From contig JAHDHN010000003.1 of NCBI GenBank assembly GCA_020631295.1, positions 1-36,245 on the forward strand: a stretch of 36,245 nucleotides of DNA. The letters run 5' to 3'. The DNA is from Rickettsiales bacterium. Lineage in GTDB: Bacteria > Pseudomonadota > Alphaproteobacteria > Rickettsiales > UBA8987. The notes under the pieces are model-generated. The model saw only the letters and a program-made list of their open reading frames with translations. It was not told the DNA's origin and did not search any database. This document shows positions 2,486 to 28,000 of this stretch, in pieces; position 1 is the stretch's first letter; each line of letters opens with the position of its first letter. The translations under genes and the position numbers were made by a program.

Positions 2486-3289
2486 ATGTTGGAAGTGCAA
2501 AAACATCTTTATTGCTATGGGTTAGGCTATTGTGCACAGCATTTGGTGGATGAGCTGGATAGATCTGCTTGGCAGGTGAGCCACTCTGTGCGAGAAGGCT
2601 TTGCATCGCTTAAGCTGCCAGAAAATATAACGCATGTGCTTATATCTATTCCACCGCAAGATGGTGTGGATATTGTGCTGCAACATCATTTGCAGGCACT
2701 GCAAGCACTTCCTAATTTGCAATGGGTGGGGTATTTATCTAGCACGGTTGTGTATGGTGACCATGATGGTGCATGGGTGGATGAAACTGCAGCGTTGCGG
2801 AGTATTACGGTGCGTGGCAAGGCGCGAATTAAAGCAGAGCAGGCTTGGATGGATTCTGGTCTGCCGGTGAATGTTTTTCGCTTAAGTGGTATTTATGGCC
2901 CAGGGCGCAATGCATTGCTGCAATTGCAACGCGGTACAGCCAAGCGTATCTATAAAGAAAACCATGTATTTTCACGCATTCATGTGGCGGATATTGTAGC
3001 AATGTTGCAGGCAAGTATTGCACATGAAGAAGCCGGTGAGATCTATAATGTAGCGGATGATATGCCTGCTGCGCAGCATGAGGTGGTGGCATATGCGGCA
3101 GAGCTGCTTGGCATAGATCCGCCGCCGTTAGTGCCATTTGAAAAAGCTGAGTTATCGCCCATGGCTGCCAGCTTCTATCAAGATTCACGCAAAATAAATA
3201 ACCGTAAGCTGAAAGCATTGCTGCCGGAGCTACGTTACCCGGATTATAAGATAGGGCTAGATAGTATAGTCACGAGATTAATGCATTAG
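2486..3289 (+). CDS. NAD(P)-binding SDR / epimerase-dehydratase family protein
   Basis: The ORF track starts at a TTG at 2465. ATG 2486 puts the Rossmann-like YGLGYCA motif near the N-terminus. RLSGIYGPGR and VADI segments are typical of atypical SDRs. Specific function unknown. Confidence 0.6.
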   Translation: MLEVQKHLYCYGLGYCAQHLVDELDRSAWQVSHSVREGFASLKLPENITHVLISIPPQDGVDIVLQHHLQALQALPNLQWVGYLSSTVVYGDHDGAWVDETAALRSITVRGKARIKAEQAWMDSGLPVNVFRLSGIYGPGRNALLQLQRGTAKRIYKENHVFSRIHVADIVAMLQASIAHEEAGEIYNVADDMPAAQHEVVAYAAELLGIDPPPLVPFEKAELSPMAASFYQDSRKINNRKLKALLPELRYPDYKIGLDSIVTRLMH

Positions 3290-3556
3290 TTGATATACCA
3301 TATATTGCGCTACATAGAGAATAAAAAGCAGTACCAGCGGTGCAAAATCCAAGCCCTCAATAGGTTTAAGAAAACGACGAATATAGCGCAGGGCAGGGGA
3401 CACAATGATCTCTAATGCACGTGAAAGGCGATACACGAGCGGGTGATGTGTGTTAATAATATTAAAATAAATTAGCCAATGTAAAATAACATGTGCTAGC
3501 ACAAACCAGCCATAGAATTTCAGGGCAAAATAAAGTGGAGCAAGTAGCAGTTTCAT
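3278..3556 (-). CDS. yggT: YggT family small membrane protein
   Basis: Start reassigned to ATG 3556 (MKLLLAPLYF...). The longer ORF to 3721 would overlap dksA. Two hydrophobic helices and SPALRYIRRFLKPIEGLDFAPLV match the YggT signature (P..R..P..gg.D.sP). The 3-prime end overlaps the convergent SDR gene by 12 nt. Confidence 0.6.
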   Translation of the reverse strand: MKLLLAPLYFALKFYGWFVLAHVILHWLIYFNIINTHHPLVYRLSRALEIIVSPALRYIRRFLKPIEGLDFAPLVLLFILYVAQYMVYQLMH

Positions 3557-3658
3557 CTGTTCATTCCTGTTTCTTTGTTGTACAGTGAATAACAGTTTTT
3601 TCTTGCCGAAAAAGCAAAAGATTGTAAATCCCTGTATGGGAATAAAGGAGGGTGGTCC

Positions 3659-4090
3659 ATGGTAAAGCTGCCAAAGAATTATACGCCAAGTGAAAAAGAA
3701 GCTTATATGTGCGATAAGCATAAGGCTTATTTCCGTGCTAAATTAGAGGCCTGGAAAGAAGAGCTGTTGGCGGAATCAAATGAGACGATCAATAATTTAA
3801 AGCATGAAAATCTGAATGAACCAGATTTGAACGACCGTGCTTCTGTGGAAACGGATACGGCGCTGGAGTTGCGTACACGTGACCGTTATCGCAAGCTTGT
3901 ATCTAAAATTGATGCGGCGGTGAAGCGTATTGAAGAAGATGAGTATGGCTATTGTGAGGTAACTGGTGAAGAAATTGGCCTTGGTCGCTTAGAAGCACGT
4001 CCAATTGCTACGATGACAGTGGAAGCACAAGAAGAGCATGAAGAACGTGAGCGCTTAGAAAAAATGGGCCGTATTGCTGAAGACGAGTAG
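3659..4090 (+). CDS. dksA: RNA polymerase-binding transcription factor DksA (one-cysteine variant)
   Basis: 143 aa. Coiled-coil tip DLNDRA (DxxDxA). C-terminal YGYCEVTGEEIGLGRLEARPIATMTVEAQ aligns to the DksA zinc-finger region but keeps only one Cys. AGGAGG lies 7-8 nt upstream of the ATG. Confidence 0.9.
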   Translation: MVKLPKNYTPSEKEAYMCDKHKAYFRAKLEAWKEELLAESNETINNLKHENLNEPDLNDRASVETDTALELRTRDRYRKLVSKIDAAVKRIEEDEYGYCEVTGEEIGLGRLEARPIATMTVEAQEEHEERERLEKMGRIAEDE

Positions 4091-4106
4091 TCTTTATTGA
4101 TATATT

Positions 4107-4646
4107 CTACTTAATTACATTATCTGCGATGCGCAGCAATTTGGAGCTGGCTTTAAGGCCCACGCTGGTTAGATTCCTCAGATGCATGTTGAATAATACT
4201 TTTTCTTTATCGGTTATAAATTCGACCATGCCTTGCTCATTAAGATAATTTGGAATAGCGCTGATAGTAAGGATAGGGCGGTCTTTTATTGCTGCATGGA
4301 CATCTTGCAATGTGCGTTCTTTTTCTGTGCCGATATATAAAATACTGCAACGTTCAAGGTCAAGTTGATAGGTAAAACGCTCTGATTTTACCTTTACCCT
4401 ATATTCACTGCCATTTTGGTCCTCTTGCAGCGGTGAAAGTATTTCTGCAATATCTGCAGCATCCAAAATACAAATAGTGTGTGTTTTTGTTGTGTAGGTA
4501 AGGCTTTCTTTAGGCCAGCTAATAAATTTAAGAAAATTATACACGTAACCCGCCTGCAGTTGCTGGCTGGTAAGGTTCTGGGCGTTAGCTGCCCCGATCA
4601 CTAACAGCAAAAACAGTGTTAGTAGTTGTTTTATATAATATTTCAC
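4107..4646 (-). CDS. YfiR-like periplasmic protein (DUF4154 family)
   Basis: 179 aa. Signal peptide with an ANA-Q cleavage site. LQAGYVYNFLKFISWP and the C-terminal SSKLLRIADNV are characteristic of DUF4154/YfiR. Starts 31 nt downstream of the receptor gene on the same strand. Confidence 0.7.
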   Translation of the reverse strand: MKYYIKQLLTLFLLLVIGAANAQNLTSQQLQAGYVYNFLKFISWPKESLTYTTKTHTICILDAADIAEILSPLQEDQNGSEYRVKVKSERFTYQLDLERCSILYIGTEKERTLQDVHAAIKDRPILTISAIPNYLNEQGMVEFITDKEKVLFNMHLRNLTSVGLKASSKLLRIADNVIK

Positions 4647-4677
4647 AAATAATCTCGCGGACTAATCTAAGCCCTTC

Positions 4678-6648
4678 TTAGAATTCTACGGTCACACGGC
4701 CAAAAATACTGCGCTCAATCTCTGCAGACTCAGCATAAAAGGAGTCATTGAATTCCACATGTTCTGAGTCAAAGAGGTTCTTGCCTATTACCTCAATACC
4801 CACATTCTCATTCACCTGATAGGAGACGCGCGTATCAAAACGAATGTAATCATCTACATTGCGTAGTTCATCTGCGTAATAGAGCATGTTATCTAGCTCA
4901 ATACCATATGGCAGATTGGCATGAGAGCGGAGTGAAAGTAAGTGCTCTGAAGTGCGCTCTTCATCCGGTTCTAATGTGCCAACATCTGTGCTTAAATCAT
5001 CCAAATGGAGGTGTACTTTTGTATATGTATAATTAGCTTCCATGCGCCATTTCGGGTTAATTTGCCATGTAGCCGAGAGTTCTGCGCCGTAGGTTTCACC
5101 GTAGCCTAAATTATCTACGACTAAAGGTAGGTCAAGAAACGGGCTAAGTGTTGGGTGGGTTGTATTTATAAAAGGTGTTTCTTGTTCAAACGTACGTAAA
5201 TTATCATAGTCGTTATAGTAAGCGCTTATATCTAGTGACAGGTTTTCACATAGTTTAGTACGCAAGCCCAACTCATAGGCCGTTAGCTCTTCGGACTCAA
5301 AATGCGGCGACCCACTTTGCGTAAAGATAGTGCTTGGTGCTACGGTTAAAGAAATACTTTTTAAAGATTCTTCATGCCTTGTTGGTGTGCGTACTGCATA
5401 AGAAACAGCACCCCAAAGAGTGGTGTCTTTTGTTGGTGTGTAGGCAATACGTGCGTTTGGTTGTATTTCTAGATGCGTAAAATCATTGTATTCGAACTTA
5501 CTGCCAAGCGTAAGATACAGAGTATCTTCCAAGAGAGAGATTTTATCTTGAATAAAGATATTGCTTACAGAGAAATCAAGATTTTCATCTGTGTAAAGCA
5601 AGTAGTTAGTACCATTAATATCGTCAGACATAAAGCGGTAACCAGCTCCAATGCTCACTTCATGATTGGCAATAGGAGTGAAGTTATATTGCAGTTCTGC
5701 ATCAATGGTGTGGCGTTGCTTTTGGACTATATTAATATCTCTATTAATGTAATCATAGTAAAGTTTTCCATGAAGGCTGGAATTATCACGCTGTGTATTG
5801 AAGCTCAGATTAATATTTGCACCATCAAAATCAGTAGGGTCTGTAAGAATAATGGGCACGCCTGGTGTTAAAGAGGGCACAAAGGAGTCATCTGTGGCTT
5901 TACCTGAATAAAAGTTACCAATGGCTGTGTAGTTTGTGGCATTTGTTTCGTGATCAATGCGGAAGCCGCCACGTGATACGTCATAATCGTCTTTTGAATT
6001 TACATTGTTAGGAAATTGTTGTTCTTCATGATCAATATGTTTTCCGTATAGGCGATATGTTGTGTTTTCTCCAATCTTGCCGCCATAACGTGCTTCTGCC
6101 CCCCAAATTTCATTGCCAGCCGTGGCTTGGACATAGCCGCCTTGGGTTTCTTTGGCTGATTTGGTGACGATATTGATTACGCCATTTACTGCATTGGCAC
6201 CCCACAGGGAGCCGCCTGGACCACGAATTACCTCGATACGGTCAATATCTTCAATGAGATAATCTTGTGCATCCCAAAATACACCGGAGAACAAAGGTGT
6301 ATAGATAGTACGGCCATCCATGAGTACCAAAAGTTTATTGGTATATTGGCGGTTATTTCCTCGTGCTGAAATGGACCATTTATTAGCGTCAATACGCGCT
6401 ACTTGTACACCAGGGACTAAGCGTAAGGCTTCAGGAATGGAGCTTACGCCTGTACGTCGCATATCTTCACTGGTTACCACATAAATAGCAGCAGCAGCTG
6501 TGCGCTTTTCTTCTTCTTGCTTGGATACAGAGGTAACCGTTTGGTTCATTAGCTCTTCTAATGTCATATCAAACACATTAGACGCAGAAACAGTTGAAAC
6601 AGCTGCACCAAGCATAGCCGCTAGCGCTACGGAAGATTTAAAACCCAT
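4678..6648 (-). CDS. TonB-dependent outer-membrane receptor (plug plus beta-barrel)
   Basis: Signal peptide, then a plug region (IPEALRLVPGVQV, LVLMDGRTIY, IEVIRGPGGSLWGANAVNGVINIVTK). Long barrel ending in the terminal aromatic residue (RVTVEF). ATG 6648 is preferred over the track start at 6657, which is a GTG overlapping the GGAG ribosome-binding site. Confidence 0.9.
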   Translation of the reverse strand: MGFKSSVALAAMLGAAVSTVSASNVFDMTLEELMNQTVTSVSKQEEEKRTAAAAIYVVTSEDMRRTGVSSIPEALRLVPGVQVARIDANKWSISARGNNRQYTNKLLVLMDGRTIYTPLFSGVFWDAQDYLIEDIDRIEVIRGPGGSLWGANAVNGVINIVTKSAKETQGGYVQATAGNEIWGAEARYGGKIGENTTYRLYGKHIDHEEQQFPNNVNSKDDYDVSRGGFRIDHETNATNYTAIGNFYSGKATDDSFVPSLTPGVPIILTDPTDFDGANINLSFNTQRDNSSLHGKLYYDYINRDINIVQKQRHTIDAELQYNFTPIANHEVSIGAGYRFMSDDINGTNYLLYTDENLDFSVSNIFIQDKISLLEDTLYLTLGSKFEYNDFTHLEIQPNARIAYTPTKDTTLWGAVSYAVRTPTRHEESLKSISLTVAPSTIFTQSGSPHFESEELTAYELGLRTKLCENLSLDISAYYNDYDNLRTFEQETPFINTTHPTLSPFLDLPLVVDNLGYGETYGAELSATWQINPKWRMEANYTYTKVHLHLDDLSTDVGTLEPDEERTSEHLLSLRSHANLPYGIELDNMLYYADELRNVDDYIRFDTRVSYQVNENVGIEVIGKNLFDSEHVEFNDSFYAESAEIERSIFGRVTVEF

Positions 6649-6669
6649 GATGTGCACTCCTATAGTTTT

Positions 6670-7323
6670 TTAGAATGCTAATTTAAAGAGCTGCATTCTG
6701 TAGTCACCATAGTCTGTTTTGTTCGGAAGTTCAACATCAGAGACTTTTATGTAGTTGAGATCTAACATTGTTTTGAAAACAATCTTATAAATACGGCTGT
6801 TTAATGCGGGTGCTACAGCAAACATATATTTAGCATTTTGTTCAATGCAGTTTAGAGCAATATAATAAAGCAAGCCATAGAGCACATTTGTGCCTCTAAG
6901 AGATTCAGCAATGACCAATCTGGAGCACTCTACACAGTCAAAACGATCGGCACTTATTTCCCTTAGATGTGAATCGAGTGAAAAATTATCATGCTCAAAG
7001 GAAAGCTTTGGATAAAGCTGGCTTGTTTTGTTCATTTTAAAGCCACCTACCACTTCACCTTCATAGGATACAACTAACATATCGCCATTTACTTCGTAAG
7101 GCTCAAGCTTTGTGGGGAAATTTTCTTCACCCACCATTTCGGAGAAAATGCGGTTACAAAGCTGCTTATAAGCCCAGATTTTTTTAGGCTCGCGCGTCCA
7201 TTCGAAGGTAAAACCTTTATCTAGCAAAGGTTGTACATATTTTTCATAGGCAGCATCAAATTTGCTGAAGTCATGCAACGAATCTTCGGAGAGAAAGGAA
7301 GGGCGAGCTGTTGTAAAATTCAT
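6670..7323 (-). CDS. hypothetical protein, GNAT-fold acyltransferase-like (LuxI / N-acyl amino acid synthase-like)
   Basis: 217 aa. The core GEVVGGFKMN ... VECSRLVIAESLRGTNVLYGLLYYIALNCIEQNAKYMFAVA resembles the beta4-alpha3 (E-x-SR-hydrophobic, R-G-x) region of acyl-ACP/CoA-dependent GNAT-fold synthases. Ends 21 nt upstream of the receptor gene. The ORF is solid; the function is tentative. Confidence 0.4.
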   Translation of the reverse strand: MNFTTARPSFLSEDSLHDFSKFDAAYEKYVQPLLDKGFTFEWTREPKKIWAYKQLCNRIFSEMVGEENFPTKLEPYEVNGDMLVVSYEGEVVGGFKMNKTSQLYPKLSFEHDNFSLDSHLREISADRFDCVECSRLVIAESLRGTNVLYGLLYYIALNCIEQNAKYMFAVAPALNSRIYKIVFKTMLDLNYIKVSDVELPNKTDYGDYRMQLFKLAF

Positions 7324-7578
7324 AAAAATCAGTTACCTAGCCTGTTATTCTGGGCAGTTTGCATTTAACCTTGCACAGATTAACGAAAAATTAACGGTTA
7401 TTGTTTAGACAATAATATTCATTGTGTAAACGCACAACTTGAGACATAGCTGCAATTAATGGTAATAGGGCTGTTACCAAAACTCACCATTATGGTGAAA
7501 AGAAAAAACTAGCCAAACTGGGGAATAATTACTCTCCATATTGGTTAAAAAGGTAAGAGGAGGCGGTAGCGGAATAAG

Positions 7579-9105
7579 ATGCTTTTTCAGCGCACCATTG
7601 GCAACATGCCGATGCGACGGAAGATCATTGTGATCACCGTTACCACAGCGACATTGGCGCTGATCTTCGCCTTTGTTGCCTTCATGCTTTATAATTCTTA
7701 TAAACAACGTGAGATTCTGCGCAATGATATTGCCGTGCTTAGGGATGTGCTTGGAAAGCAATCTATCGCAGCACTTACCTTCTTTGATTATGATGTGGGT
7801 AAGGAGAATTTGGAGGCGCTGCGAGAAAAGGAATCGGTAATTATTGCGTGTCTGTATGACACGGCCATGAAAGAGTTCTCCTCCTATCACCGTAATGAGG
7901 AATATGTAAATTGCCCTAATTCACCGCCATTGGGAGGCTATTTTACCGAGTATGGCCTGGAAACACATTCCTATATCAACTTTAAGGGAGAGTATTTAGG
8001 CTCTATTTATATCCGTTCAGATCTGCGCCAAATTACCGAGGATTTTAGGCAGCTTGGTATATTTGTGCTGATCTTCTTGATATTGGGTGTGGCACTGGCT
8101 TATTTGATTTCGCTTTATATGCTACGCTTTATCACGCGCCCAATTGATAATTTGGTGCATACGGCCACACGCGTTACGCGTGATCATAATTATACCACAC
8201 GGGCGCGCAAAATGACCAATGATGAATTGGGGCAGCTGGTAGTAAGCTTCAATGAGATGTTAGGTGAGATTGAAAACCGAGACCGTGCGATTGTAGATTC
8301 CTATAATTTATTAGAAAAACGCGTAGTAGAGCGTACCAAAGCTTTGGCAACCGCAAAGGAAGAGGCGGAGAACGCTAACCAGTCGAAAAGTGAGTTCTTG
8401 GCCAATATGTCTCATGAATTACGTACGCCAATGCATGCGATTCTAAGCTTTGCAGATTTTGGTTTGGAAGAAAGTAAGAAAGATCCGGACAGCGAAGAAC
8501 ATCGCTTTTTTACACGCATTAAAACAGCCGGAGATCGCTTGCTTAAATTGCTGAATAACCTGCTTGATTTATCCAAGCTAGAAGCAGGCAAGATGGATTT
8601 CACCATGCGCCAGGCGGATATGATGCGTGTGATTGAGAATGTGGTGCGTGAAATTAATATTTTAGCAACGAAAAAGCAGATCACGGTAAATGTGCACTCC
8701 TCTCTTTCCAACACCTCTATTGCCATGGATAAAGATAAAATCTTCCAGGTGGTGCAAAATTTGGTGGCGAATGCGATTAAATTCTCTCCGGATAAATCAA
8801 CGGTGCATATTAATGTAAAAGATATGCGGGATATAGAAAAGCCATCCAATGTAGAGTTTGAGCGTGGCATGGCGGTGCAGGTGATTGATGAAGGGGTGGG
8901 TATTCCAGAAGATGAGTTGTCAAATGTATTTGATAAGTTCATCCAAAGCAGCCATACCACCAGTGGTGCGGGCGGTACAGGGCTTGGACTAGCAATCTCG
9001 CAGGAGATGGTTGCGGCGCATCATGGGCATATTTGGTGTGAAAATAACGATGAGGCTGGTGCAACATTCACATTTGTGTTACCACTAAGTGATAGGAATA
9101 ATTAG
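7579..9105 (+). CDS. sensor histidine kinase (TM, CHASE8-like periplasmic domain, TM, HAMP, HisKA, HATPase_c)
   Basis: 508 aa. Two TM helices (IIVITVTTATLALIFAFVAFML and GIFVLIFLILGVALAYLISLYML) flank a ~130-aa domain. HAMP region (RPIDNLVHTA..DELGQLVVSFNEM). H-box SEFLANMSHELRTPMH. N-box NLVANAIKFSP. G-boxes DEGVGIP and GGTGLGLAIS. The start could instead be ATG 7609 or 7615. Confidence 0.9.
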   Translation: MLFQRTIGNMPMRRKIIVITVTTATLALIFAFVAFMLYNSYKQREILRNDIAVLRDVLGKQSIAALTFFDYDVGKENLEALREKESVIIACLYDTAMKEFSSYHRNEEYVNCPNSPPLGGYFTEYGLETHSYINFKGEYLGSIYIRSDLRQITEDFRQLGIFVLIFLILGVALAYLISLYMLRFITRPIDNLVHTATRVTRDHNYTTRARKMTNDELGQLVVSFNEMLGEIENRDRAIVDSYNLLEKRVVERTKALATAKEEAENANQSKSEFLANMSHELRTPMHAILSFADFGLEESKKDPDSEEHRFFTRIKTAGDRLLKLLNNLLDLSKLEAGKMDFTMRQADMMRVIENVVREINILATKKQITVNVHSSLSNTSIAMDKDKIFQVVQNLVANAIKFSPDKSTVHINVKDMRDIEKPSNVEFERGMAVQVIDEGVGIPEDELSNVFDKFIQSSHTTSGAGGTGLGLAISQEMVAAHHGHIWCENNDEAGATFTFVLPLSDRNN

Positions 9106-9126
9106 AAGATGGGGGAGATCGTAAAT

Positions 9127-10068
9127 ATGAGAAATGCAACAATCAAAGCCGCAGCGCGTGATTCAAAGCTGATGCAAAATATCCCACGTATTTTATGTGT
9201 GGATGACGAAGAGTTTAATTTAGAGATCTTAGAGAAGCATATTAAAGATGCTGGCCTAGACCCGGTATTGGCCATGAATGCAGAGGAGGCATGGAGCATT
9301 CTGGATAAAGAGCGCGATGCGATTGATGTGGTGTTGCTGGACCGTATGATGCCGGGCATGGACGGCCTTACCTTGCTGAAAAAGATGAAAGAGGTGGAGC
9401 ATCTGAAGCATATTCCGGTGATTATGCAAACGGCAAAAGTAGCAGCGGAAGATGCTACGGATGGTATTATGGCCGGTGCCTATTATTATGTAACCAAGCC
9501 ATATACTGCCAGCATGGTGATCTCTATTGTAAATGCTGCTCTTACAGAGCGTAAGCATCAGCGCAAAATGTTAAACCGTATGGAGAGTTTGGATATTACT
9601 CTATCTTCCTTGCGCAGTGCAGAATTTCAAATTCAATCACCTAAAGAGGCCAGCCAAATTGCGGCTTATTTAGCTAAATTGGGCAAAAACCCATCACGCG
9701 CTCTGGTAGCGCTTAGCGCGTTATTGAGCAATGCAATTGAGCATGGAAATTTAGGGTTTGGCTATTCTCAGAAACATGAACTTGCTGCTAATGGTGAGTT
9801 TGAAGCTGCATTGGAAGAGGCGCTGGCCGAGCCAGAAAATATGCATAAATATGTAGAAGTGTATTTCAACCGTCTGCCTAATCATAAGCTTGAGGTGCGG
9901 ATTAAGGATCAAGGGCAGGGCTTTAATTGGCAAGAATATATGGATTTTGATCCGTCTCGTATTACCGACCCTAATGGCCGCGGTATTGCCATGGCTAATA
10001 TTACCAGCCCTGGCGCTATTCACTATACAGGCAATGGTAGTGAGGTAATGTTCACCTATGATGCATAA
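9127..10068 (+). CDS. response regulator with RsbW/SpoIIAB-like serine-kinase (HATPase_c_2-type) output domain
   Basis: REC domain: DD at CVDDEE, phosphoacceptor LLDRMMPGMDG, IMQTA, YVTKP. C-terminal N-box LSNAIEHGN, G1 KDQGQGF and G2 NGRGIAMAN. No DNA-binding or GGDEF domain. ATG 9127 follows a GGGGAG site; the track start at 9109 is also possible. Confidence 0.85.
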   Translation: MRNATIKAAARDSKLMQNIPRILCVDDEEFNLEILEKHIKDAGLDPVLAMNAEEAWSILDKERDAIDVVLLDRMMPGMDGLTLLKKMKEVEHLKHIPVIMQTAKVAAEDATDGIMAGAYYYVTKPYTASMVISIVNAALTERKHQRKMLNRMESLDITLSSLRSAEFQIQSPKEASQIAAYLAKLGKNPSRALVALSALLSNAIEHGNLGFGYSQKHELAANGEFEAALEEALAEPENMHKYVEVYFNRLPNHKLEVRIKDQGQGFNWQEYMDFDPSRITDPNGRGIAMANITSPGAIHYTGNGSEVMFTYDA

Positions 10069-10076
10069 TTATGCAT
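10061..10076. repeat. perfect 16-bp palindrome atgcataattatgcat spanning the regulator stop codon and the mutT start codon
   Basis: Read directly from the sequence. TAA at 10066-10068 and ATG at 10071-10073 both lie inside the palindrome. Its halves match the gcataatt / aattatgc termini of the repeats at 27097-27227 and 36060-36207. Confidence 0.8.
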
Positions 10077-10526
10077 GAGGTGAGGGCAGCAGCCTGTGTG
10101 CTATATCGCGAGCGTGGTGCAAATAAGGAAGTGCTGCTAGCACAACGATCTTCGGATACGAACTATCCGCATTATTGGGAGTTTCCCGGTGGAAAAATAG
10201 AGCAGGGCGAGTCTCCGGAGGCTGCGCTTCAGCGTGAGCTAAAAGAAGAGCTGGGTATTGAGGTCTCTGAAGCAGTATTTGTACCCATTACCTTTATCTC
10301 AGAATCACGCCCAGCCGATGCAAAACATGCAAACCCGTATCATATTTTGGTATTTATCTATGGCTGTGCTACCTGGCAAGGTGAGCCAGAAAGCAAAGAA
10401 GATCAGCCGCTTCATTGGGTGCCTCTAGAAGCATTAGATACATATGACCTGCTGCCAGGAAACATACCACTCCTGCCACAGATTAAGGCGTTTTTTCAGC
10501 TGGATGCTTGTTCTAAGCTTGCTTAA
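10071..10526 (+). CDS. mutT: NUDIX hydrolase, MutT (8-oxo-dGTP diphosphatase) family
   Basis: 151 aa. Nudix box GGKIEQGESPEAALQRELKEELGI preceded by WEFPGG. Start is 2 nt after the regulator stop. Confidence 0.85.
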   Translation: MHEVRAAACVLYRERGANKEVLLAQRSSDTNYPHYWEFPGGKIEQGESPEAALQRELKEELGIEVSEAVFVPITFISESRPADAKHANPYHILVFIYGCATWQGEPESKEDQPLHWVPLEALDTYDLLPGNIPLLPQIKAFFQLDACSKLA

Positions 10527-10541
10527 CAATATTCCACTGCA

Positions 10542-10629
10542 ATCCCTGACAAGCGCAGCGCAGATCGGGGATCCAGGGTTAACAAGCACTGTCTATCGTT
10601 TCGCCCTGGGCCCTCGCTTTCGCAAGGGC
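10542..10629. repeat. diverged copy of the hairpin-modular MITE-like repeat family
   Basis: Hairpin tccctga..tcgggga is followed by atccagg (compare ggtatccagag in the other copies). ctatcgtttcgccctgg resembles ctatcgcccctgg at 27171-27182. Terminal hairpin gccct-cgctttcgca-agggc. Lies between convergent mutT and fumC. Confidence 0.4.
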
Positions 10630-10649
10630 TTCAAAATGGGAAATTATTA

Positions 10650-12077
10650 TTAATCACGTGGGCCGATCATGTCCTCTGGCACCACCCACTCATTGAACTG
10701 GTCTTCGCTGAGTAGTTCCAGCTCTAATGCAGCTTTTTTCAGTGTTGTGCCATCCTGATGTGCTTTTTTCGCAATCTTAGCGGCATTATCATAGCCAATA
10801 TGCGGGTTCAGTGCGGTCACTAGCATCAAAGATTCATCACGCAAGGCAGCAATGCGGCGCTTATTCGCCTCAATGCCCACCACGCATTTATCGGTGAAGC
10901 TGTTACAGCCATCTGCCAGCAAGCGGATGGATTGCAACACGTTATAAATCATCACAGGCTTAAATACATTCAGCTCAAAATGACCGTTGGAGCCAGCAAT
11001 GCTCACGGTAGTGTTATTGCCCATCACCTGCGCGGCCACCATGGTGAGCGCTTCGCACTGGGTTGGGTTTACCTTACCTGGCATAATAGAGGAGCCAGGC
11101 TCATTTTCCGGCAGGCGAATTTCGCCAATGCCGCAGCGCGGGCCAGAGCCCAGCATACGAATATCATTGGCAATCTTCATAATGCTCACTGCCACTGTGT
11201 TTAGCGCGCCGCTCAGCTCCACCAGCGCATCATGCGCCGCCAGTGCCTCAAATTTATTTTCTGCCGTCACAAAGGGCAAGTTGGTAATTTTGGCTACTTC
11301 TGTTGCAAAGGCTTCGGCAAAGCCTTTTTTGGAGTTAATGCCGGTGCCCACAGCCGTGCCGCCTTGCGCCAGCTGATACATGCGCGGCAATGCATCTTCC
11401 ACGCGCTTAATGCCATTTTCCATCTGCTTCACATAGCCGGAAAATTCCTGCCCAAGCGTGAGCGGTGTGGCATCTTGCAAATGCGTACGGCCGATTTTTA
11501 CGATATCCGCAAAGGCCTTGCATTTCTGCTCAAGCGCTTCTTTCAAATGCTGCAAGGCTGGCAGCAGTACATGATGCACTTGCTCCACTGCAGAAATATG
11601 CATGGCGGTAGGGAAGGTATCGTTAGAAGATTGGCCCATATTCACATGGTCATTTGGGTGCACGGGGTCTTTGCTGCCCAGCTCACCGCCCAGAATTTCA
11701 ATGGCGCGGTTAGCAATCACCTCATTGCTGTTCATATTGCTTTGCGTGCCAGAGCCTGTTTGCCACACAGAAAGCGGAAAATTATCCAGATATTGCAGAT
11801 CAGCCACTTCGCTTGCCGCCTGCACAATGGCTTCGCCAATATCTTCCGGCATCACGCCCAGCTCCACATTCACGGCTGCTGCGGCTTGCTTGATAATGCC
11901 CAAAGCGCGCACCAAGGGTGCCGGCATGGTTTCTTCGCCAATGGGGAAATTAATCAAAGAACGGGCGGTTTGCGCACCCCAATATTTATCAGAAGGCACA
12001 TCCAGCGGACCAAAAGAATCGGACTCTGTGCGAAACTCTACTAAACTCTCATTCACTGCTTCAGCGTTGTTATTCAT
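10650..12077 (-). CDS. fumC: class II fumarate hydratase
   Basis: 475 aa. Signature [15 protein letters not shown], plus [12 protein letters not shown] and HPNDHVN motifs. Confidence 0.97.
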
Positions 12078-12284
12078 GCTATCTCCAGGCTCTATTTGAT
12101 AAGGATTTGTGCCATTACTCCCCTCTCACCGAAGATGCAAGGCTAGAAATTTTCTTTCAGCCAGCCCATGAAGCCGGCGGATTTGCGGCCGCGGCGGCCA
12201 AATTGCCCGCCTTTATGCCGCTTGGGTAGATAGTGTCTTTTTTCCTGCTTGTTCAAATGCATGGATGCTGGCATATTCGTCGAT

Positions 12285-13010
12285 ATGGAGAATAACGAAC
12301 ATAATATACATATGGTGAGTGATGCGCTGCGTGAAACGCGGGAGCATATGGGGCTTTCTGTGGCAGATGTCTCAGAAAAAACCAATATTCGTACTGTATA
12401 TATTGAGGCGATAGAGAAGGGCCTCATAGAAGATTTGCCCGGTGATATTTATATTGATGCCTATATTCGTACCTATGCAGAGCTTTTGGGATTAGATGCG
12501 GAAAAATTGGTGGAACAGCTGCATAAGAAGAAAACACGCTTTCGTGATAAAGTGCGCCACACTTTGCCAGATATTAAGCAAGAGCCTTATAGCCCGCCTG
12601 CTTGGGTATTGCTGCTGGCAGTTATGTTGTTATTTGCGGCCTTCATTGCCATGAAGCAGCTGGTGTTGCGCCCTGATTTTGTGCAGGCACAGTCTCCTTC
12701 TGCCACAGAGGCTTATGCAGAGATGCTGCGTGAGCCAGAGCATCGTGTTACCTTAACAGCCCTAGAGCCACTCGATGTGATTGTAGAAAATACATCTGGC
12801 CTGCAGCAGGAATATAATTTGGATGCGGGTACGCATATTGAGCTGCCAGTACAGGAGCATTATCTGCTATATCCCAGTGAAAAAGCGCATATGCAGCTTT
12901 CTGTAAGCGGGTATAAGGTGCAGGATCTACGCGGGCTGGAGCATGGAGAGCAAGGCATATTTTTTTCTGCCTATGATTTAATTGGCCGTACCGAAATAGG
13001 AACACAATAA
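12285..13010 (+). CDS. rodZ: RodZ-like cytoskeleton protein (HTH, TM, C-terminal domain)
   Basis: N-terminal XRE-type HTH (LRETREHMGLSVADVSEKTNIRTVYIEAIEKG), one TM helix (WVLLLAVMLLFAAFIAM) and a C-terminal beta-rich domain. Sits immediately upstream of ispG, as rodZ does in E. coli. The start could be 12249 or 12285. Confidence 0.7.
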   Translation: MENNEHNIHMVSDALRETREHMGLSVADVSEKTNIRTVYIEAIEKGLIEDLPGDIYIDAYIRTYAELLGLDAEKLVEQLHKKKTRFRDKVRHTLPDIKQEPYSPPAWVLLLAVMLLFAAFIAMKQLVLRPDFVQAQSPSATEAYAEMLREPEHRVTLTALEPLDVIVENTSGLQQEYNLDAGTHIELPVQEHYLLYPSEKAHMQLSVSGYKVQDLRGLEHGEQGIFFSAYDLIGRTEIGTQ

Positions 13011-14228
13011 ATGACAATGACACGTCATCATACGCATCAGGTGATGGTAGGAAAGGTGGCTGTGGGTGGCGGTGCGCCAGTGGTGGTGCAATCCATGACC
13101 AACACTGACACGGAAGATGTAGAGTCCACCATTGCCCAGGTAAAAACACTGGCGGATGCAGGCTCTGAGATTGTGCGTATCACGGTGAATACAGAGGCCG
13201 CTGCCAAGGCGGTGCCGTATATTCGTGACGGGCTGTTGGAGCTGGGTTGTGATGTGCCTCTGGCAGGGTGCTTTCACTATAACGGTCATCGCTTGTTGCA
13301 AGATGTGCCGGCTTGCGCAGAGGCGTTGGAAAAATACCGCATCAATCCTGGTAATGTAGGGTTTGGCGAAAAGCGTGATCGCCAATTTGAAGAGATGATT
13401 GAGGTGGCGCTAAAGCATGATAAGCCCGTGCGCATTGGTGTGAATTGGGGCAGTTTAGACCAAGATTTGGCCACTAAATTAATGGATGATAATGCCAAGA
13501 GTGTGGATCCCAAAGCAGCAGAAGAGATTTTGCAGGAAGCGTTGATTCTTTCTTCCTTGACCAGTGCAGAGAAGGCAGAGCAGGTGGGGTTGAGCTCGGA
13601 TAAAATTATTATTTCCTGCAAGGTCAGCCGAGTGCAAGAGCTGGTGCATGTCTATACGGAACTGGCCAAACGCAGCAATTATGCGCTGCATGTGGGGCTA
13701 ACGGAAGCCGGCATGGGCAGCAAAGGCATTGTGGCCACCACAGCGGGGTTAGGCATTTTGCTGCAGCAAGGCATTGGTGATACTATTCGTGCGAGCCTAA
13801 CGCCCAAGCCGGGTGAGCCGCGTGAGCAGGAAGTGATTGTATGCCAGCAAATTTTGCAAGTGTTGGGTGTGCGTTCTTTCATGCCGCTAGTAACGGCTTG
13901 CCCAGGCTGTGGCCGTACCACCAGCACATTCTTCCAAACGTTGGCCGAAAAAATTCAGGATTATCTGCAGGCACAAATGCCGGTATGGCGAGAGCAATAT
14001 ACAGGCGTGGAAGAGATGAATGTGGCGGTGATGGGCTGTATTGTAAATGGCCCGGGTGAGAGCAAGCATGCCAATATTGGCATCAGCCTGCCTGGCACGG
14101 GTGAAAGCCCTGCCGCACCGGTATTTATTGACGGCAAAAAGGTCAAAACCCTGCGCGGTGATGGCATCGCCGAAGAATTCCAACATATGGTACAGGATTA
14201 TGTACAAACCAGCTATGCGGTGAAATAA
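13011..14228 (+). CDS. ispG: 4-hydroxy-3-methylbut-2-en-1-yl diphosphate synthase
   Basis: 405 aa. [14 protein letters not shown] and RIGVNWGSL motifs. Fe-S cysteines in ACPGCGRT and [12 protein letters not shown] directly abuts the rodZ stop. Confidence 0.95.
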
Positions 14229-18450: not shown

Positions 18451-19293
18451 ATGTCTTCACTACCTGCGTTTACTATACGCGATCTTATGGATGCCGGCGT
18501 GCATTTTGGTCACAAAACCATGCGCTGGAACCCAAAAATGGCGCCATTTATTTTCGGTGAGAAAAATAATATCCACATTATTGACCTTGGTCAGACAGCA
18601 CCTTTATTGCACCGTGCGTTGAAAGCAGCTTATGATGTAGCATCTAAAAACGGTCGTATTTTGTTTGTGAGCACAAAGCGTCAGGGTTCTGATGTGGTGG
18701 CCGAGCAAGCACAGCGTTGCGGCCAGTATTATGTAAATTTCCGCTGGTTGGGCGGCATGTTAACCAATTGGGGTACAGTATCACAATCCATCAACACATT
18801 GCGCGATATTGAAGCGCAATTGGCGGATGAGGAAATTGATATCACCAAGAAGGAGCGTCTGACGCTAACGCGCAAGCTGCAGAAGTTGGAAAACTCTTTG
18901 GGTGGTATTAAGGATATGGGCGGCACGCCGGATTTGGTGTTTGTGATTGATACGAACAAGGAGCATATCGCTATTAAAGAGGCCAACAAGCTTGGTATTC
19001 CTGTGATTGCGGTGGCAGACACGAACTCTGACCCTGCTGGCATTGATCATATCATCCCTGGTAATGATGATTCTGTGCGCTCTATTGAGCTTTATGCGAA
19101 GTTGATTGCCGATGCAGCACTTGCTGGTTTGGGCAGTGCGCTGGGTGGTAAGCAAGATAATGCAAAGCCAGCTGCAGAGAAGGAAGAAAAAGAGCTTAAA
19201 GTGGTGAAAAAAGAAGCCAAGAAGCTTGATAAAAAAGAAGAGGAAGCCGCTGCTGAGGGTGTTGAAGACGCACCAAAAGAAGCGTCTGCATAA
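18451..19293 (+). CDS. rpsB: 30S ribosomal protein S2
   Basis: 280 aa. [20 protein letters not shown]-terminus. Lys/Glu-rich C-terminal tail. Confidence 0.97.
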
Positions 19294-19332
19294 CCTCATC
19301 TAACATAAGAATACGAATAAGGAGAAAGAATC

Positions 19333-20262
19333 ATGGCAGAGATAACTGCAGCAAAAATTAAAGAACTGCGCGAAATTAGTGGCGCAGGCATGATGGATTG
19401 TAAAAAAGCACTGAACGAAGCGGGCGGTGATTTTGAAGCAGCCAAAGACTGGTTGCGTGAGAAGGGTCTTGCCAAGGCGGCGAAGAAAGCGTCTCGCGTG
19501 GCAGCTGAAGGTGTGGTGGTAGTTGCTGCTGAAGGCAATAACGCATCTGTAATTGAGTTGAACTCTGAAACAGACTTCGTGGCGAAAAATGAAGATTTCC
19601 AAGCGGTGGCTAGAAATATTGCTGCCACTGCACTGGCAACACAGGGTGATCTTGATGCGCTGAACAATGCTACAGAGGCATCTACGGGCAAGCCAGTATC
19701 TGAAGTAATTACGGATAATATCGCTACTATTGGTGAAAATCTGAATTTGCGTCGTGTGGCAAATGTGTCTGTGAATGAAGGTGCCGTAGTAAGCTATATC
19801 CACAATGCTTATGCGGATAATATCGGCCGTATTGCGGTGCTTGTGGCACTGGAATCTGCGGGTGATAAAGCAGCGCTTGAGCAGTTGGGCAAGCAGCTGG
19901 CCATGCATATTGCTGCAATGAAGCCTGAGTCTTTGAATGTAGACGGTGTGAATGCAGAAAATCTTGAGCGTGAGCGCAAAATTTATGCAGAGCAGGCACG
20001 TGCGTCTGGTAAGCCAGAGAACATCATTGAGAAAATGGTGGAAGGCCGCATTCGCAAATATTACGAGCAAGTAGTATTCCTAGAGCAGCCTTTTGTGATT
20101 GATGGCAAAACGGCTGTAAAAGACGTGCTGAAAGAAGCGGAAAAAGAAGCAGGCGCGCCTGTATCTATTTCAGACTACGCGATTTTGGTAGTAGGTGAGG
20201 GCATTGAAAAAGAAGAAACTGATTTTGCTGCAGAAGTGGCACAAACAGTAAACGCTGCCTAA
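19333..20262 (+). CDS. tsf: translation elongation factor Ts
   Basis: 309 aa. ITAAKIKELREISGAGMMDCKKAL UBA-like N-terminus. LNSETDFVAKNEDF. Confidence 0.97.
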   Translation: MAEITAAKIKELREISGAGMMDCKKALNEAGGDFEAAKDWLREKGLAKAAKKASRVAAEGVVVVAAEGNNASVIELNSETDFVAKNEDFQAVARNIAATALATQGDLDALNNATEASTGKPVSEVITDNIATIGENLNLRRVANVSVNEGAVVSYIHNAYADNIGRIAVLVALESAGDKAALEQLGKQLAMHIAAMKPESLNVDGVNAENLERERKIYAEQARASGKPENIIEKMVEGRIRKYYEQVVFLEQPFVIDGKTAVKDVLKEAEKEAGAPVSISDYAILVVGEGIEKEETDFAAEVAQTVNAA

Positions 20263-20286
20263 GTAGCTATTACATGCTGAATAATG

Positions 20287-20314
20287 AAAAGGGTCGCTTT
20301 AGCGGCCCTTTTTT
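20287..20314 (+). terminator. rho-independent terminator after tsf
   Basis: Stem aaaagggtcgc / gcggcccttttt (7 G/C-rich pairs including one G-U), loop ttta, followed by a T6 run. Confidence 0.75.
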
Positions 20315-20352
20315 ATGTTGTGCTGCGCATTCCACTTGCACCAATTGTTTGA

Positions 20353-21093
20353 ATGCAGCATATCCTTATGCTCAAGATGGGCACACAACTTCCATATAAA
20401 CGTATTTTGCTGAAGGTCTCGGGTGAGGCCTTGATGGGCGATGGTGCTTACGGCCATGACTTGGAAACCATTCAACGTATTTGCCGTGAAATTGCTTCTG
20501 TGCAGGCGCTGGGTGTAGAGCTGTGCTTGGTGGTTGGTGGTGGCAATATTTTCCGCGGCATGGCGGCAGCAGAAGCGGGCATGGAGCGTGCCACGGGTGA
20601 TTATATGGGCATGCTTGCCACGGTGATGAACGCGTTGGCCTTGCAAGCAGCCTTAGAGCAAATTGATGTGGATACACGCGTGATGAGCGCCATTCCTATG
20701 GACTCTGTCTGTGAACCTTATATTCGCCGCCGTGCCCTGCGCCATATGCAAAAAGGCCGCGTGGTGATTTGCGCTGCGGGCACGGGCAACCCATTCTTCA
20801 CGACGGATACTTGCGCTGCTTTGCGCGCAGTGGAGCTGAATTGTGATGCGTTGTTTAAAGGCACGCAGGTGGACGGTATTTACAATGAAGACCCTAAAAA
20901 GAACCCAGATGCAACATTCTATCCAACATTATCCTATAAAAAAGTGTTGGAAGAAGATCTGCGTGTGATGGACGGTGCCGCCATTGCCTTGGCGCGCGAA
21001 AATAAATTGCCAATTGTGGTGTTTAACATGCATCATCATGGGCATTTTAAAGAAGTAATCAGCAATAATGGTAAAGCTACCATTGTAGAATAA
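20353..21093 (+). CDS. pyrH: UMP kinase
   Basis: [33 protein letters not shown]. The true start is probably an internal ATG at 20368 or 20377. Confidence 0.95.
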
Positions 21094-21124
21094 TATTCCC
21101 TAAATAAATTTAGGGAATATTATG

Positions 21125-21167
21125 AAAATCAAGCAGCGAGTGTAACGAGCGAACGTCTTGATTTTTT
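21125..21167 (+). terminator. terminator-like hairpin in the pyrH-frr spacer
   Basis: 9-bp stem aaaatcaag / cttgatttt with a 23-nt loop, running into a T run (cttgattttttg). Confidence 0.4.
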
Positions 21168-21242
21168 GCTGCGACAGCAAGCGGATAACTTTATTGATGA
21201 AAATCAATAAAGTTAAAAGATATTATAATAAGGAAGAAGACT

Positions 21243-21794
21243 ATGGCAGATATGCAAGATTTAGAGCGTCGTATGGAAGGTGCAGTAAATGCATTTTCAA
21301 ATGATTTGGGTGGGTTGCGTACTGGCCGCGCTAGTGCCAGCTTGGTAGAAAATGTGCAGGTGGAAGTTTACGGTAGCCTTATGCCGCTAAACCAAGTGGC
21401 TACCATCAATATTCCTGAGCCGCGTATGATCTCTCTGCAAGTGTGGGACAAGGGCAATGTGCCATTCGTGGAAAAAGCCATTTTAAATGCAGATTTGGGC
21501 CTGAACCCGTCTTCTGACGGGCAGATTGTGCGTTTGCCTATTCCAGATTTAACGGAAGAGCGCCGCACAGAAATGACCAAGATTGCCGGAAAATACGCGG
21601 AGCAAGCGCGTGTATCGGTGCGCAATGTGCGTCGTGATGGCATGGAGGCGGTGAAAAAGCAGGAAAAAGACGGCGAAATTTCACAGGATGAAATGCATGG
21701 CAAGAGTGATGAGGTGCAGCAACTTACAGACCGTTTTATCAAGCAGATTGACGAGATGTTGGCTGCTAAAGAGAAAGACATCATGACGGTATAA
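21243..21794 (+). CDS. frr: ribosome recycling factor
   Basis: 183 aa. LGGLRTGRASASLVENV, IPDLTEERRTEMTKIAGKYAEQARVSVRNVRRD. Confidence 0.97.
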   Translation: MADMQDLERRMEGAVNAFSNDLGGLRTGRASASLVENVQVEVYGSLMPLNQVATINIPEPRMISLQVWDKGNVPFVEKAILNADLGLNPSSDGQIVRLPIPDLTEERRTEMTKIAGKYAEQARVSVRNVRRDGMEAVKKQEKDGEISQDEMHGKSDEVQQLTDRFIKQIDEMLAAKEKDIMTV

Positions 21795-21798
21795 AGGA

Positions 21799-22467
21799 GT
21801 GTCAGATGGACTCCATATTGCCATTATTATGGACGGCAACGGCCGCTGGGCTGAAGCGCGCGGTAAAAAACGCAGCGCAGGCCATAAGCAAGGGGCAGAA
21901 ACCGCTAAGCAGATTGTGCTGGCTGCTGCCAAACATCCACGCATTGCACATGTAACGCTTTATGCATTCTCAGAAGAAAATTGGCAACGCCCAGAGGATG
22001 AGGTCAAGGACCTGATGGGTCTGATGCGCTTTTATTTAGGGCAGGAAATCAAGGCATTGCACAAGCATGGCGTGGCGGTGGATGTGATTGGTGATGTAAG
22101 CAAATTAAGCAGCGATATGCGCAATAAAATTGCGGCAGCCAGCAAGGAAACATCGGAGAGCACGGCATTGCAGGTGCATATTGCGCTTAGCTATGGCGCG
22201 CGGCAGGAGCTCACCCAGGCTGCAAAAAACATGGCAGCTGCAGGCGCAGAAGAACTTGCACCCTTTTTATATACCAACAATGTGCCAGATCCGGATTTGC
22301 TGATTCGCACCGGTGGAGAAAAACGGCTCAGCAATTTCTTGCTGTGGCAATGTGCTTATACAGAGCTTTATTTTACCGATATATTATGGCCCGATTTCAC
22401 TGGTGAAGATGTAGAAGATGCACTTGCTGATTTCGACGCCCGCCACCGGCGATATGGGAAGTTGTAG
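21799..22467 (+). CDS. uppS: di-trans,poly-cis-undecaprenyl-diphosphate synthase
   Basis: HIAIIMDGNGRWA, TLYAFSEENWQRP, IRTGGEKRLSNFLLWQCAYTELYF. GTG start 4 nt after the frr stop. Confidence 0.95.
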   Translation: MSDGLHIAIIMDGNGRWAEARGKKRSAGHKQGAETAKQIVLAAAKHPRIAHVTLYAFSEENWQRPEDEVKDLMGLMRFYLGQEIKALHKHGVAVDVIGDVSKLSSDMRNKIAAASKETSESTALQVHIALSYGARQELTQAAKNMAAAGAEELAPFLYTNNVPDPDLLIRTGGEKRLSNFLLWQCAYTELYFTDILWPDFTGEDVEDALADFDARHRRYGKL

Positions 22468-27589: not shown

Positions 27590-28000
27590 ATGGCTATTTC
27601 TTCCATTGAACAACGTTGTATTGATAAAAAGCTGAAAATGACTGATCAGCGTCGTGTGATTGCGCGTGTGCTGGCGGAAGCGGCAGATCATCCGGATGTG
27701 GAAGAAGTATATAACCGCTCTGTAGCGCGTGATCCGCGTATTTCTATTGCTACTGTGTATCGCACGGTGAAGCTATTTGAAGAAAATGATATTATCGAGA
27801 AGCATGATTTTGGTGATGGCCGTGCACGCTATGAAGAAGCGACCGATGAGCATCACGACCATTTGATTGATATTAAATCTGGTAAGGTGATTGAGTTTGT
27901 GCACCCGGATATTGAGCGTTTGCAAAAAGAAATTGCTGAATCATACGGCTATGATTTGGTAGATCACCGCCTTGAGCTTTATGTGGTGCCTAAGGAATAG
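27590..28000 (+). CDS. fur: Fur-family metalloregulator (no CxxC structural-zinc motifs)
   Basis: 136 aa. Winged-helix ISIATVYRTVKLFEENDII. Metal-site HHDHLID where E. coli Fur has HHDHLIC. No cysteine after residue 10. Confidence 0.85.
   Translation: MAISSIEQRCIDKKLKMTDQRRVIARVLAEAADHPDVEEVYNRSVARDPRISIATVYRTVKLFEENDIIEKHDFGDGRARYEEATDEHHDHLIDIKSGKVIEFVHPDIERLQKEIAESYGYDLVDHRLELYVVPKE

Follow-up and report, generated by a model that had tools for sequence, protein, structure and literature searches.

In the YfiBNR (TpbB) system of Pseudomonas aeruginosa, which is taken to sense stress in the periplasm and the envelope, the periplasmic protein YfiR inhibits YfiN by binding to its periplasmic sensor domain, and an outer-membrane partner relieves this inhibition by sequestering YfiR, the fold of which resembles periplasmic or ATP-binding cassette (ABC) substrate-binding domains (PMC4655355). 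On the output side of bacterial signaling, LvrC (lic11110) of Leptospira interrogans was characterized in 2026 as the regulator at the end of the LvrA-LvrB phosphorelay; it is phosphorylated by its kinase, its Bergerat domain resembles RsbW and SpoIIAB, and it was proposed to act as an anti-sigma factor under the control of its receiver (REC) domain, with LvrC-type outputs being proposed to reprogramme transcription globally (PMC13269768). Here, we describe a five-gene block at positions 4107–10068 of a 36,245-nt stretch of DNA from a Rickettsiales bacterium (contig JAHDHN010000003.1; the whole stretch is referred to as the window), in which relatives of both systems are encoded side by side: a TonB-dependent receptor, a YfiR-like protein and a CHASE8 histidine kinase, joined by a regulator of the LvrC type and by a predicted N-acyltransferase of the LuxI/FeeM type. 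We consider it probable that all five genes belong to a single pathway. Related loci in other genomes and metagenomes are denoted by L-numbers where they have to be told apart.

4107–4646, minus strand: DUF4154/YfiR-like gene, 179 aa
4678–6648, minus strand: TonB-dependent receptor gene, 656 aa from an ATG at 6648 (or 659 aa from a GTG at 6657)
6670–7323, minus strand: predicted LuxI/FeeM-like N-acyltransferase gene, 217 aa
7324–7578: divergent intergenic spacer, 255 bp, 36% G+C
7579–9105, plus strand: CHASE8 histidine kinase gene, 508 aa
9109–10068 (319 aa) or 9127–10068 (313 aa), plus strand: LvrC-type regulator gene, the public gene call starting at 9127

The genes were taken from a six-frame list of open reading frames (ORFs), from which the arrangement given in an initial annotation of the sequence was reproduced: three minus-strand genes separated by 21 and 31 nt, a divergent spacer of 255 bp, and dksA and mutT-fumC as flanks. 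The two gaps hold if the receptor start is taken as the ATG at 6648, which is preceded by a GGAG 9 nt upstream and was also chosen in the public gene call (656 aa).

The three proteins at the core of the block are recognized by Pfam as what the initial annotation had named them from the letters alone, i.e., a plug-domain TonB receptor, a YfiR/DUF4154 protein and a kinase with a CHASE8 sensor. The receptor features a signal peptide, a conserved TonB-box-like segment near its N-terminus (LEELMNxxVTSVSK), a Plug domain (3e-20, residues 51–160) and a TonB_dep_Rec barrel (7.5e-31), the last residue of which is Phe; an STN signaling domain was not matched by Pfam, and just ~25 residues lie between signal peptide and plug. 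The 179-aa protein, for which an N-terminal signal peptide was read from the sequence, matches DUF4154 (PF13689, E 3.5e-31) and is alignable along its entire mature length to the P. aeruginosa YfiR structures 5y61 and 4yn7, with two of its Cys residues aligning with Cys71 and Cys110, the redox-sensitive pair of YfiR. The kinase is composed of a first transmembrane helix, the periplasmic CHASE8 domain (5e-9; 36.8 bits, cutoff 27), a second transmembrane helix, and HAMP, HisKA (His in SHELRTP) and HATPase_c domains, all of them matched by Pfam, and is not a hybrid kinase.

For these three protein types, NCBIfam holds curated and mutually linked models, namely NF053590 (TonB_dep_TOL0244), NF053591 (YfiR_like_TOL0243) and NF053592 (HK_near_YfiR_like, the YfiR-like-associated kinase). 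The receptor matches the first at E 9e-186 with 619 bits, short of the cutoff of 645, the next-best family reaching only 124 bits and siderophore and B12 receptors ranking next; the YfiR-like protein reaches 98 of the 125 bits required by its own model, which is still its clear best family; and residues 12–232 of the kinase cover positions 2–222 of the 223-position profile with 172.7 bits, below the cutoff of 194. Compared with 67 receptor-linked YfiR-like proteins, the 179-aa protein has retained both the W-P motif, which is invariant, and the conserved Cys, and is, judged by its sequence, a divergent member of this TonB-receptor-linked family. The block and the TOL_0243/TOL_0244 cassette of NCBIfam thus have the same three protein types in common, each as clear best match and all encoded within 5 kb. 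They differ in the position of the kinase gene, which in the cassette follows the YfiR-like gene but in the window is transcribed divergently, and in the added FeeM-like and LvrC-type genes.

A metagenome scan anchored on the receptor yielded 80 loci (receptors 37–46% identical to that of the window), the downstream genes of which were annotated by iterated hidden Markov model searches. A YfiR-like gene follows the receptor directly in 61 of the 64 loci with at least 700 bp of downstream sequence, and a CHASE8 sensor is encoded downstream in 50 of the 57 loci with at least 1.5 kb. Where at least 3.5 kb were available (39 loci), the sensor was a plain kinase in 14 cases, a hybrid kinase in 16, a CHASE8-GGDEF protein in three and another CHASE8 sensor in two, with no CHASE8 sensor being found in the remaining four. 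These counts establish the trio as a widespread conserved module with interchangeable outputs, and they bear out the association of CHASE8 sensors, DUF4154 proteins and plug-domain receptors that the initial annotation had put forward. In one scan, hundreds of trio matches from environmental bacteria were present among the matches listed.

In relation to YfiBNR and to HmsCDE of Yersinia, the window shares the periplasmic YfiR protein, an inner-membrane sensor with CHASE8 and HAMP domains, and the logic of a three-compartment relay with an outer-membrane partner. However, three hallmarks of YfiBNR are missing. The outer-membrane partner YfiB is an OmpA-like lipoprotein, whereas the window encodes a 22-strand TonB-dependent receptor; the output of YfiN is a GGDEF cyclase, whereas the window sensor ends in HisKA and HATPase_c; and the Cys145-Cys152 pair of YfiR has no counterpart. 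As had been stated before, neither a YfiB-like nor a GGDEF gene is present among the window ORFs scanned.

The regulator encoded next to the kinase links this module to the LvrC type. Its REC domain is unambiguous (PF00072 at 6e-24), with D32, D33, D78, T108 and K130 being invariant in 40 sequences, and it is followed by a C-terminal domain that matches HATPase_c_2 with 19.3 bits, under the Pfam cutoff of 27.4. The family is large, comprising ~300-aa proteins (4358 matches), and in a sample of 40 members HATPase_c_2 was reached by 36 (E up to 0.01, best 8.7e-12). In the 40-sequence alignment, invariant residues of the C-terminal domain fall into the N-box (N208, E211, H212, G213), the G1 motif (D267-x-G-x-G-F) and the G2 motif (G290-R-G). 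Residues 27–316 of the regulator align end to end with residues 5–291 of PDB entry 9QIH (E 3.7e-11), to which profile matches reach 5.5e-26 for the whole regulator and 7.8e-13 for the C-terminal domain alone. The PDB label “SenB” of this entry does not refer to the selenoneine enzyme; the protein is LvrC of L. interrogans. Both regulators hence consist of a REC and a Bergerat domain within ~300 aa, are alignable over their full length and have the N-box, G1 and G2 motifs in common. They differ in their input and genetic setting: the kinase that feeds LvrC is cytoplasmic, REC-controlled and not encoded next to it, whereas the window regulator adjoins the gene of a CHASE8 membrane sensor.

A further difference concerns the residue four positions before the N-box Asn, which is Ala204 in the window regulator (ALLSNAIEHG) and Glu in LvrC (YELLGNAIEHG). 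We take the residue at −4 from the Mg-binding Asn to be the catalytic Glu of GHKL motif I (ExxxN), the “general base.” In the 47 closest relatives this position is occupied by Ala, Gly, Ser or Thr and in none by Glu. The Glu is kept throughout L010–L024 and by 54 of 72 family members that are more distant. In MutL and GyrB, variants with Ala in place of this Glu have no ATPase activity and may also be impaired in binding ATP (PMC13614785). With the catalytic Glu replaced, an active serine-kinase output is unlikely for the subclade of the window, and from its sequence the regulator is more likely a phosphorylation-controlled module that binds or sequesters a target in the manner of an anti-sigma factor. 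The regulator of L173 (5165–6091, minus strand), which is part of a complete five-gene cassette, retains the Glu (ELMVNAVEHG), so that the loss is not strictly tied to the association with CHASE8 or FeeM-like proteins. Genes for STAS, PP2C or sigma-factor proteins were found neither among the window ORFs scanned nor beside the regulator homologues inspected (~20 loci). In comparison with RsbW and SpoIIAB, the window regulator is thus set apart by the missing catalytic Glu, by the lack of an adjoining STAS or sigma gene and by its sub-threshold HATPase_c_2 score. The initial annotation had proposed a serine-kinase (partner-switching) output; of this, the Bergerat fold, supported by the homology to LvrC, stands, whereas the missing Glu and the lack of STAS or sigma genes nearby speak against catalysis and a local partner.

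The pairing of this regulator with a CHASE8 kinase is conserved. Its closest relatives (43–51% identical) always follow a CHASE8 kinase (L004, L006, L008, L171, L172), and including the window and L173 the two genes are adjacent in seven loci with different flanks and protein identities of only 37–51%; the window kinase itself is 37–47% identical to the kinases paired with this regulator in the other six. More distant regulators (33–40% identical) are accompanied by PAS/CHASE kinases, by a ParA-like gene or by nothing, with no cassette nearby, and among the matches listed in a scan of species genomes the true full-length regulator relatives were L010–L024 only, none of them with a cassette, the rest being mostly generic REC proteins. 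One distant relative (33% identity, 92% coverage) is encoded on chromid AZO_p4 of Azospirillum lipoferum 4B (L176, 458036–462493), directly after a 1140-aa protein annotated only as “response regulator,” which is probably a hybrid kinase, and is followed by a diguanylate cyclase gene on the opposite strand. In two of the loci named above (L171, 8978–9628; L008, 11016–11417), the regulator gene is immediately followed, on its own strand, by small genes of phage or gene-transfer-agent type (DUF2460, Tail_completion_gp17). The flanks and source names of relatives suggest metagenome-assembled genomes of Alphaproteobacteria.

The remaining member of the block, the 217-aa protein, has no match in Pfam or NCBIfam, including FeeM, Acetyltransf_5 and Autoind_synth, and a word-indexed homology search with the protein alone or with a three-sequence profile returned only the protein itself. 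An exhaustive HMMER search retrieved 135 relatives at 20–33% identity. Among 56 relatives that were aligned, 45 match FeeM (PF21926) and 43 match Acetyltransf_5, and matches to Autoind_synth occur as well; the orthologues in L173 and L006 match FeeM weakly. The profile of the family reaches the N-acyl homoserine lactone synthase BjaI in the PDB at E 2e-4. When the alignment of the relatives was supplied, the AlphaFold2 model of the protein reached a predicted local distance difference test score of 88.9, compared with 37 for the single sequence, and the top PDB fold matches of this model were LasI (1ro5, E 9e-8) and FeeM (2g0b, E 3e-7), with BjaI also listed; template modeling scores were about 0.53–0.62 at 10–15% identity to the solved structures, with generic GNATs close behind LasI and FeeM. 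The family moreover conserves the motifs GG-x-(R/K) and E-x-S-R, which are typical of LuxI-type enzymes, and among the syntenic orthologues G93, G94, E110, E132 and R135 are conserved. On the basis of remote homology and of the modeled fold, and by these routes only, the earlier designation as “acyltransferase-like” could be upheld: the protein is best described as a cytoplasmic GNAT N-acyltransferase-like protein with a predicted LuxI/FeeM fold. While the GNAT-derived fold and both motifs are shared with FeeM, LasI and BjaI, its gene heads a TonB-receptor operon and is not located beside a LuxR-type receptor or within a natural-product cluster.

This genetic position is kept across considerable sequence divergence. 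The divergent layout, with the FeeM-like, receptor and YfiR-like genes reading one way and the CHASE8 kinase and regulator genes the other, recurs in L006, L171 and L173, the last of which came to light by a separate route, via the closest FeeM-like relative; receptors of L004, L006, L171 and L173 are 39–46% identical to that of the window. The full set of five families hence co-occurs in three other, deeply diverged genomes, as the reading of the initial annotation requires. In L174 and L175, a FeeM-like gene is followed by a receptor of this type (43 and 65% identical to that of the window) before the contig ends, which brings to six the loci in which the gene immediately precedes a receptor of this type, and all three closest FeeM-like relatives with readable context precede such a receptor. 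The FeeM-like orthologues are merely 19–41% identical to one another, and the genes around the cassette differ in every locus with enough flank to compare, which argues for selection on the linkage of FeeM-like gene and receptor and not for recent common descent. In two of the six loci, genes of a resistance-nodulation-division (RND) efflux system (ACR_tran and a membrane-fusion protein) are located within ~4 kb of the FeeM-like gene (L173, 1–3914; L174, 1768–6155), in L174 together with a TetR regulator; these pumps could export an acyl product, or their presence could be mere coincidence.

As to novelty, the core trio had already been recognized in annotation, although no paper on the function or even a description of the receptor/YfiR-like/CHASE8-kinase trio was found in literature searches. 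The combination of this trio with a FeeM-like enzyme and a Glu-less LvrC-type regulator was not found described in the literature searched. The earlier statement that neither signal nor output is defined for this gene combination has to be qualified by the curated NCBIfam models of the trio and by the recent characterization of the regulator type (PMC13269768).

The linkages of the receptor with the YfiR-like protein and the CHASE8 sensor, of the CHASE8 kinase with the regulator subclade, and of the FeeM-like gene with the receptor are conserved, the first of them being tight and ancient. The overall explanation we favor, albeit with some reserve, is that they serve a relay across the envelope, of which we infer every protein-protein and ligand step. 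By analogy to YfiBNR, the YfiR-like protein would bind the periplasmic CHASE8 domain of the kinase and hold it in one signaling state, a gating function for which we see about an even chance. The TonB-dependent receptor would take the place of YfiB and supply the input from the outer membrane, with the arrival of a ligand altering the hold of the YfiR-like protein. Since the receptor is devoid of an STN domain and the YfiR fold is like that of a binding protein, we prefer a version in which the receptor imports a ligand that would be bound by the YfiR-like protein or by the CHASE8 domain; alternatively, the receptor could itself capture the YfiR-like protein. The kinase would in turn phosphorylate the adjacent LvrC-type regulator, which would capture or release a target encoded elsewhere. 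Finally, the FeeM-like enzyme may provide an N-acylated small molecule that is the ligand of the receptor or the source of it, a role that is conceivable but doubtful. A TonB-dependent receptor genetically coupled to an output in transcription control, here probably at the sigma level, is also found in FecA-FecR-FecI signaling; in contrast to that system, the window receptor has no STN domain, no gene for a FecR-like anti-sigma factor or an extracytoplasmic function sigma factor was found in the window, and the coupling would be achieved by a two-component system together with a YfiR-like protein that is soluble.

Several observations weigh against this relay. All three core proteins remain below the NCBIfam cutoffs, and the YfiR-like protein departs from its 67 receptor-linked counterparts at six sites with a conservation of 88% or more. 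It is also devoid of the Cys145-Cys152 pair, with no Cys in the aligned segment; in P. aeruginosa this disulfide is essential for the folding of YfiR and is located at the YfiB interface (PMC4655355), so that its absence fits with the absence of a YfiB gene. For a receptor without STN domain, there is no precedent for signaling by protein contact, and TonB-ExbBD genes were not found locally among the window ORFs scanned. Moreover, neither a FeeM-like gene nor an LvrC-type regulator is present in any of the 80 metagenome cassettes, from which it follows that the acyltransferase is not required for the core to work. On the output side, the lack of a local sigma or STAS gene has to be added, and the anti-sigma role of LvrC itself has the status of a proposal.

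Among the rival explanations, the one that survives best is an uptake operon located beside its regulator, in which a siderophore-like or otherwise scarce compound would be imported, with the YfiR-like protein serving as periplasmic binding or chaperone protein, the FeeM-like enzyme acylating a secreted chelator and the two-component system doing no more than tuning operon expression. The siderophore and B12 receptors that rank next among the NCBIfam matches of the receptor are in accordance with this option, as are the role that such receptors have in general and the resemblance of the YfiR fold to ABC substrate-binding domains (PMC4655355). In the spacer, a Fur-box-like palindrome (GACAATAATATTCATTGTG, 7408–7426) is located ~85 bp upstream of the FeeM-like gene and agrees with the E. 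coli Fur consensus at 14 of 19 positions, and a Fur-family gene is encoded within the window at 27590–28000. However, the palindrome is weak (P ~0.015 in spacer shuffles) and has no counterpart in the corresponding spacers of L006, L171 and L004. Moreover, genes for an inner-membrane permease or an ABC transporter are missing next to the receptor, both in the window and in the conserved cassettes, a DNA-binding domain is lacking in the regulator, and the near-invariant partner of receptor and YfiR-like protein is a CHASE8 sensor, i.e., a domain known as target of YfiR. We therefore rate uptake as unlikely.

Lower still stands envelope-lipid homeostasis, in which the FeeM-like enzyme would remodel membranes as an aminolipid N-acyltransferase of the OlsB kind, and receptor, YfiR-like protein and kinase would monitor the envelope and adjust a sigma programme. 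The family Acetyltransf_5, which is matched by 43 of the 56 relatives, also contains lyso-ornithine-lipid synthases and lipid N-acyltransferases. The view of YfiBNR as an envelope-stress sensor (PMC4655355) and the global scope proposed for LvrC-type outputs would likewise be compatible with such a role. Nevertheless, a gene for an OlsA-like companion O-acyltransferase was not found in the window, the top folds are LasI and FeeM, which are soluble synthases of signals and natural products, a TonB-gated importer would be an odd sensor of membrane state, and most cassettes do not contain the acyltransferase at all, making this explanation rather improbable. We give no more credence to the far-reaching extension of the favored relay into a quorum-sensing-like self-signaling circuit, in which an N-acylated signal made by the LuxI/FeeM-like enzyme would be taken up again via a dedicated TonB-dependent receptor, read out in the periplasm by the YfiR-like protein acting on the CHASE8 kinase, and used by a catalytically silent Bergerat domain of the LvrC type to free or capture a sigma factor; if true, the circuit would depart from the LuxI/LuxR and LuxPQ types in its synthase, in its receptor route and in its output. 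The weakest candidate, a genuine RsbW-type partner-switching serine kinase with its STAS antagonist encoded elsewhere, can draw on the HATPase_c_2 matches of 36 of 40 family members, the invariant Asn, DxGxG and GRG motifs and the published similarity of LvrC to RsbW and SpoIIAB structures (PMC13269768), but is very unlikely in view of the Glu that LvrC and distant members keep and the window regulator and all 47 closest relatives have lost, with replacement by Ala killing activity in MutL and GyrB (PMC13614785), and of the lack of adjacent STAS or PP2C genes in the ~20 loci inspected.

Apart from its gene content, the block is set off by its composition. Its G+C content is 41.9%, compared with 48.7% in the remaining window, and the per-gene values range from 0.38 to 0.445 for the five genes vs. 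0.438 to 0.535 for the 26 other window genes (Mann-Whitney p = 2.4e-5); G+C content at third codon positions differs as well (Mann-Whitney p = 0.003). Measured as correlation of relative synonymous codon usage, the three minus-strand genes are atypical (r 0.30–0.62, against a baseline of 0.77–0.93 for other long genes), whereas kinase and regulator are ordinary (r 0.78–0.83). Since housekeeping genes make up most of the comparison set, the contrast could also reflect expression level instead of foreign origin. The A+T richness noted in the initial annotation is consequently confirmed for the block, but a deviating codon bias only for its three minus-strand genes. The term “island,” which was used there too, is justified solely as a compositional description: a mobile island was rejected, since no tRNA genes were found in a tRNA search, no repeats flank the block, no Rfam family or riboswitch was matched, and no plasmid relative of the block was found.

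The A+T-rich spacer presumably holds both divergent promoters; a promoter scan returned 17 sites compared with 16.9 in shuffled sequence, i.e., no excess. Terminator-like hairpins are about twofold enriched across 3600–10700 (12 vs. 6.2 ± 2.5 in shuffles), with most of them lying inside coding sequence or on the strand that is wrong for the genes. The block is bordered by the following genes:

3659–4090: dksA, recognized by Pfam
10071–10526, plus strand: NUDIX/mutT-like gene, recognized by Pfam
Beyond the NUDIX gene: class-II fumarase gene, recognized from a protein signature motif

The NUDIX gene begins 2 nt past the stop codon of the regulator on the same strand and is thus probably co-transcribed with kinase and regulator; it is not conserved beside the regulator in L004, L006, L171 and L173. 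On the other side, a gene for a YggT-family membrane protein is located at 3278–3721 (minus strand), and since its longest ORF runs into the dksA start, its true start is probably farther downstream; a YggT gene also stands immediately after the regulator in L172. The rest of the window carries housekeeping genes, e.g., a RodZ-like HTH_25 gene beside ispG (12249–14228), the rpsB-tsf-pyrH-frr-uppS cluster and the genes for electron transfer flavoprotein alpha and beta (18451–22467), as well as acs, aroC, murJ, miaB-phoH and cox genes.

The receptor/YfiR-like/CHASE8 trio is common in environmental bacteria and already represented by curated models, and it suggests that periplasmic repression of the YfiR type may be a general plug-in by which events at the outer membrane are connected to kinases and cyclic di-GMP cyclases, with a TonB-gated channel as outer-membrane partner. 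For the wider family of regulators, the homologue of the cultured A. lipoferum could serve as a tractable model. Moreover, owing to the loss of the catalytic Glu, the subclade found here provides a natural test of whether ATP turnover is needed in LvrC-type regulators or whether sequestration alone suffices. In this context, the variant encoded in the window offers a candidate ligand-producing enzyme together with an LvrC-type output, the sigma-factor question of which is also relevant to pathogenic Leptospira.

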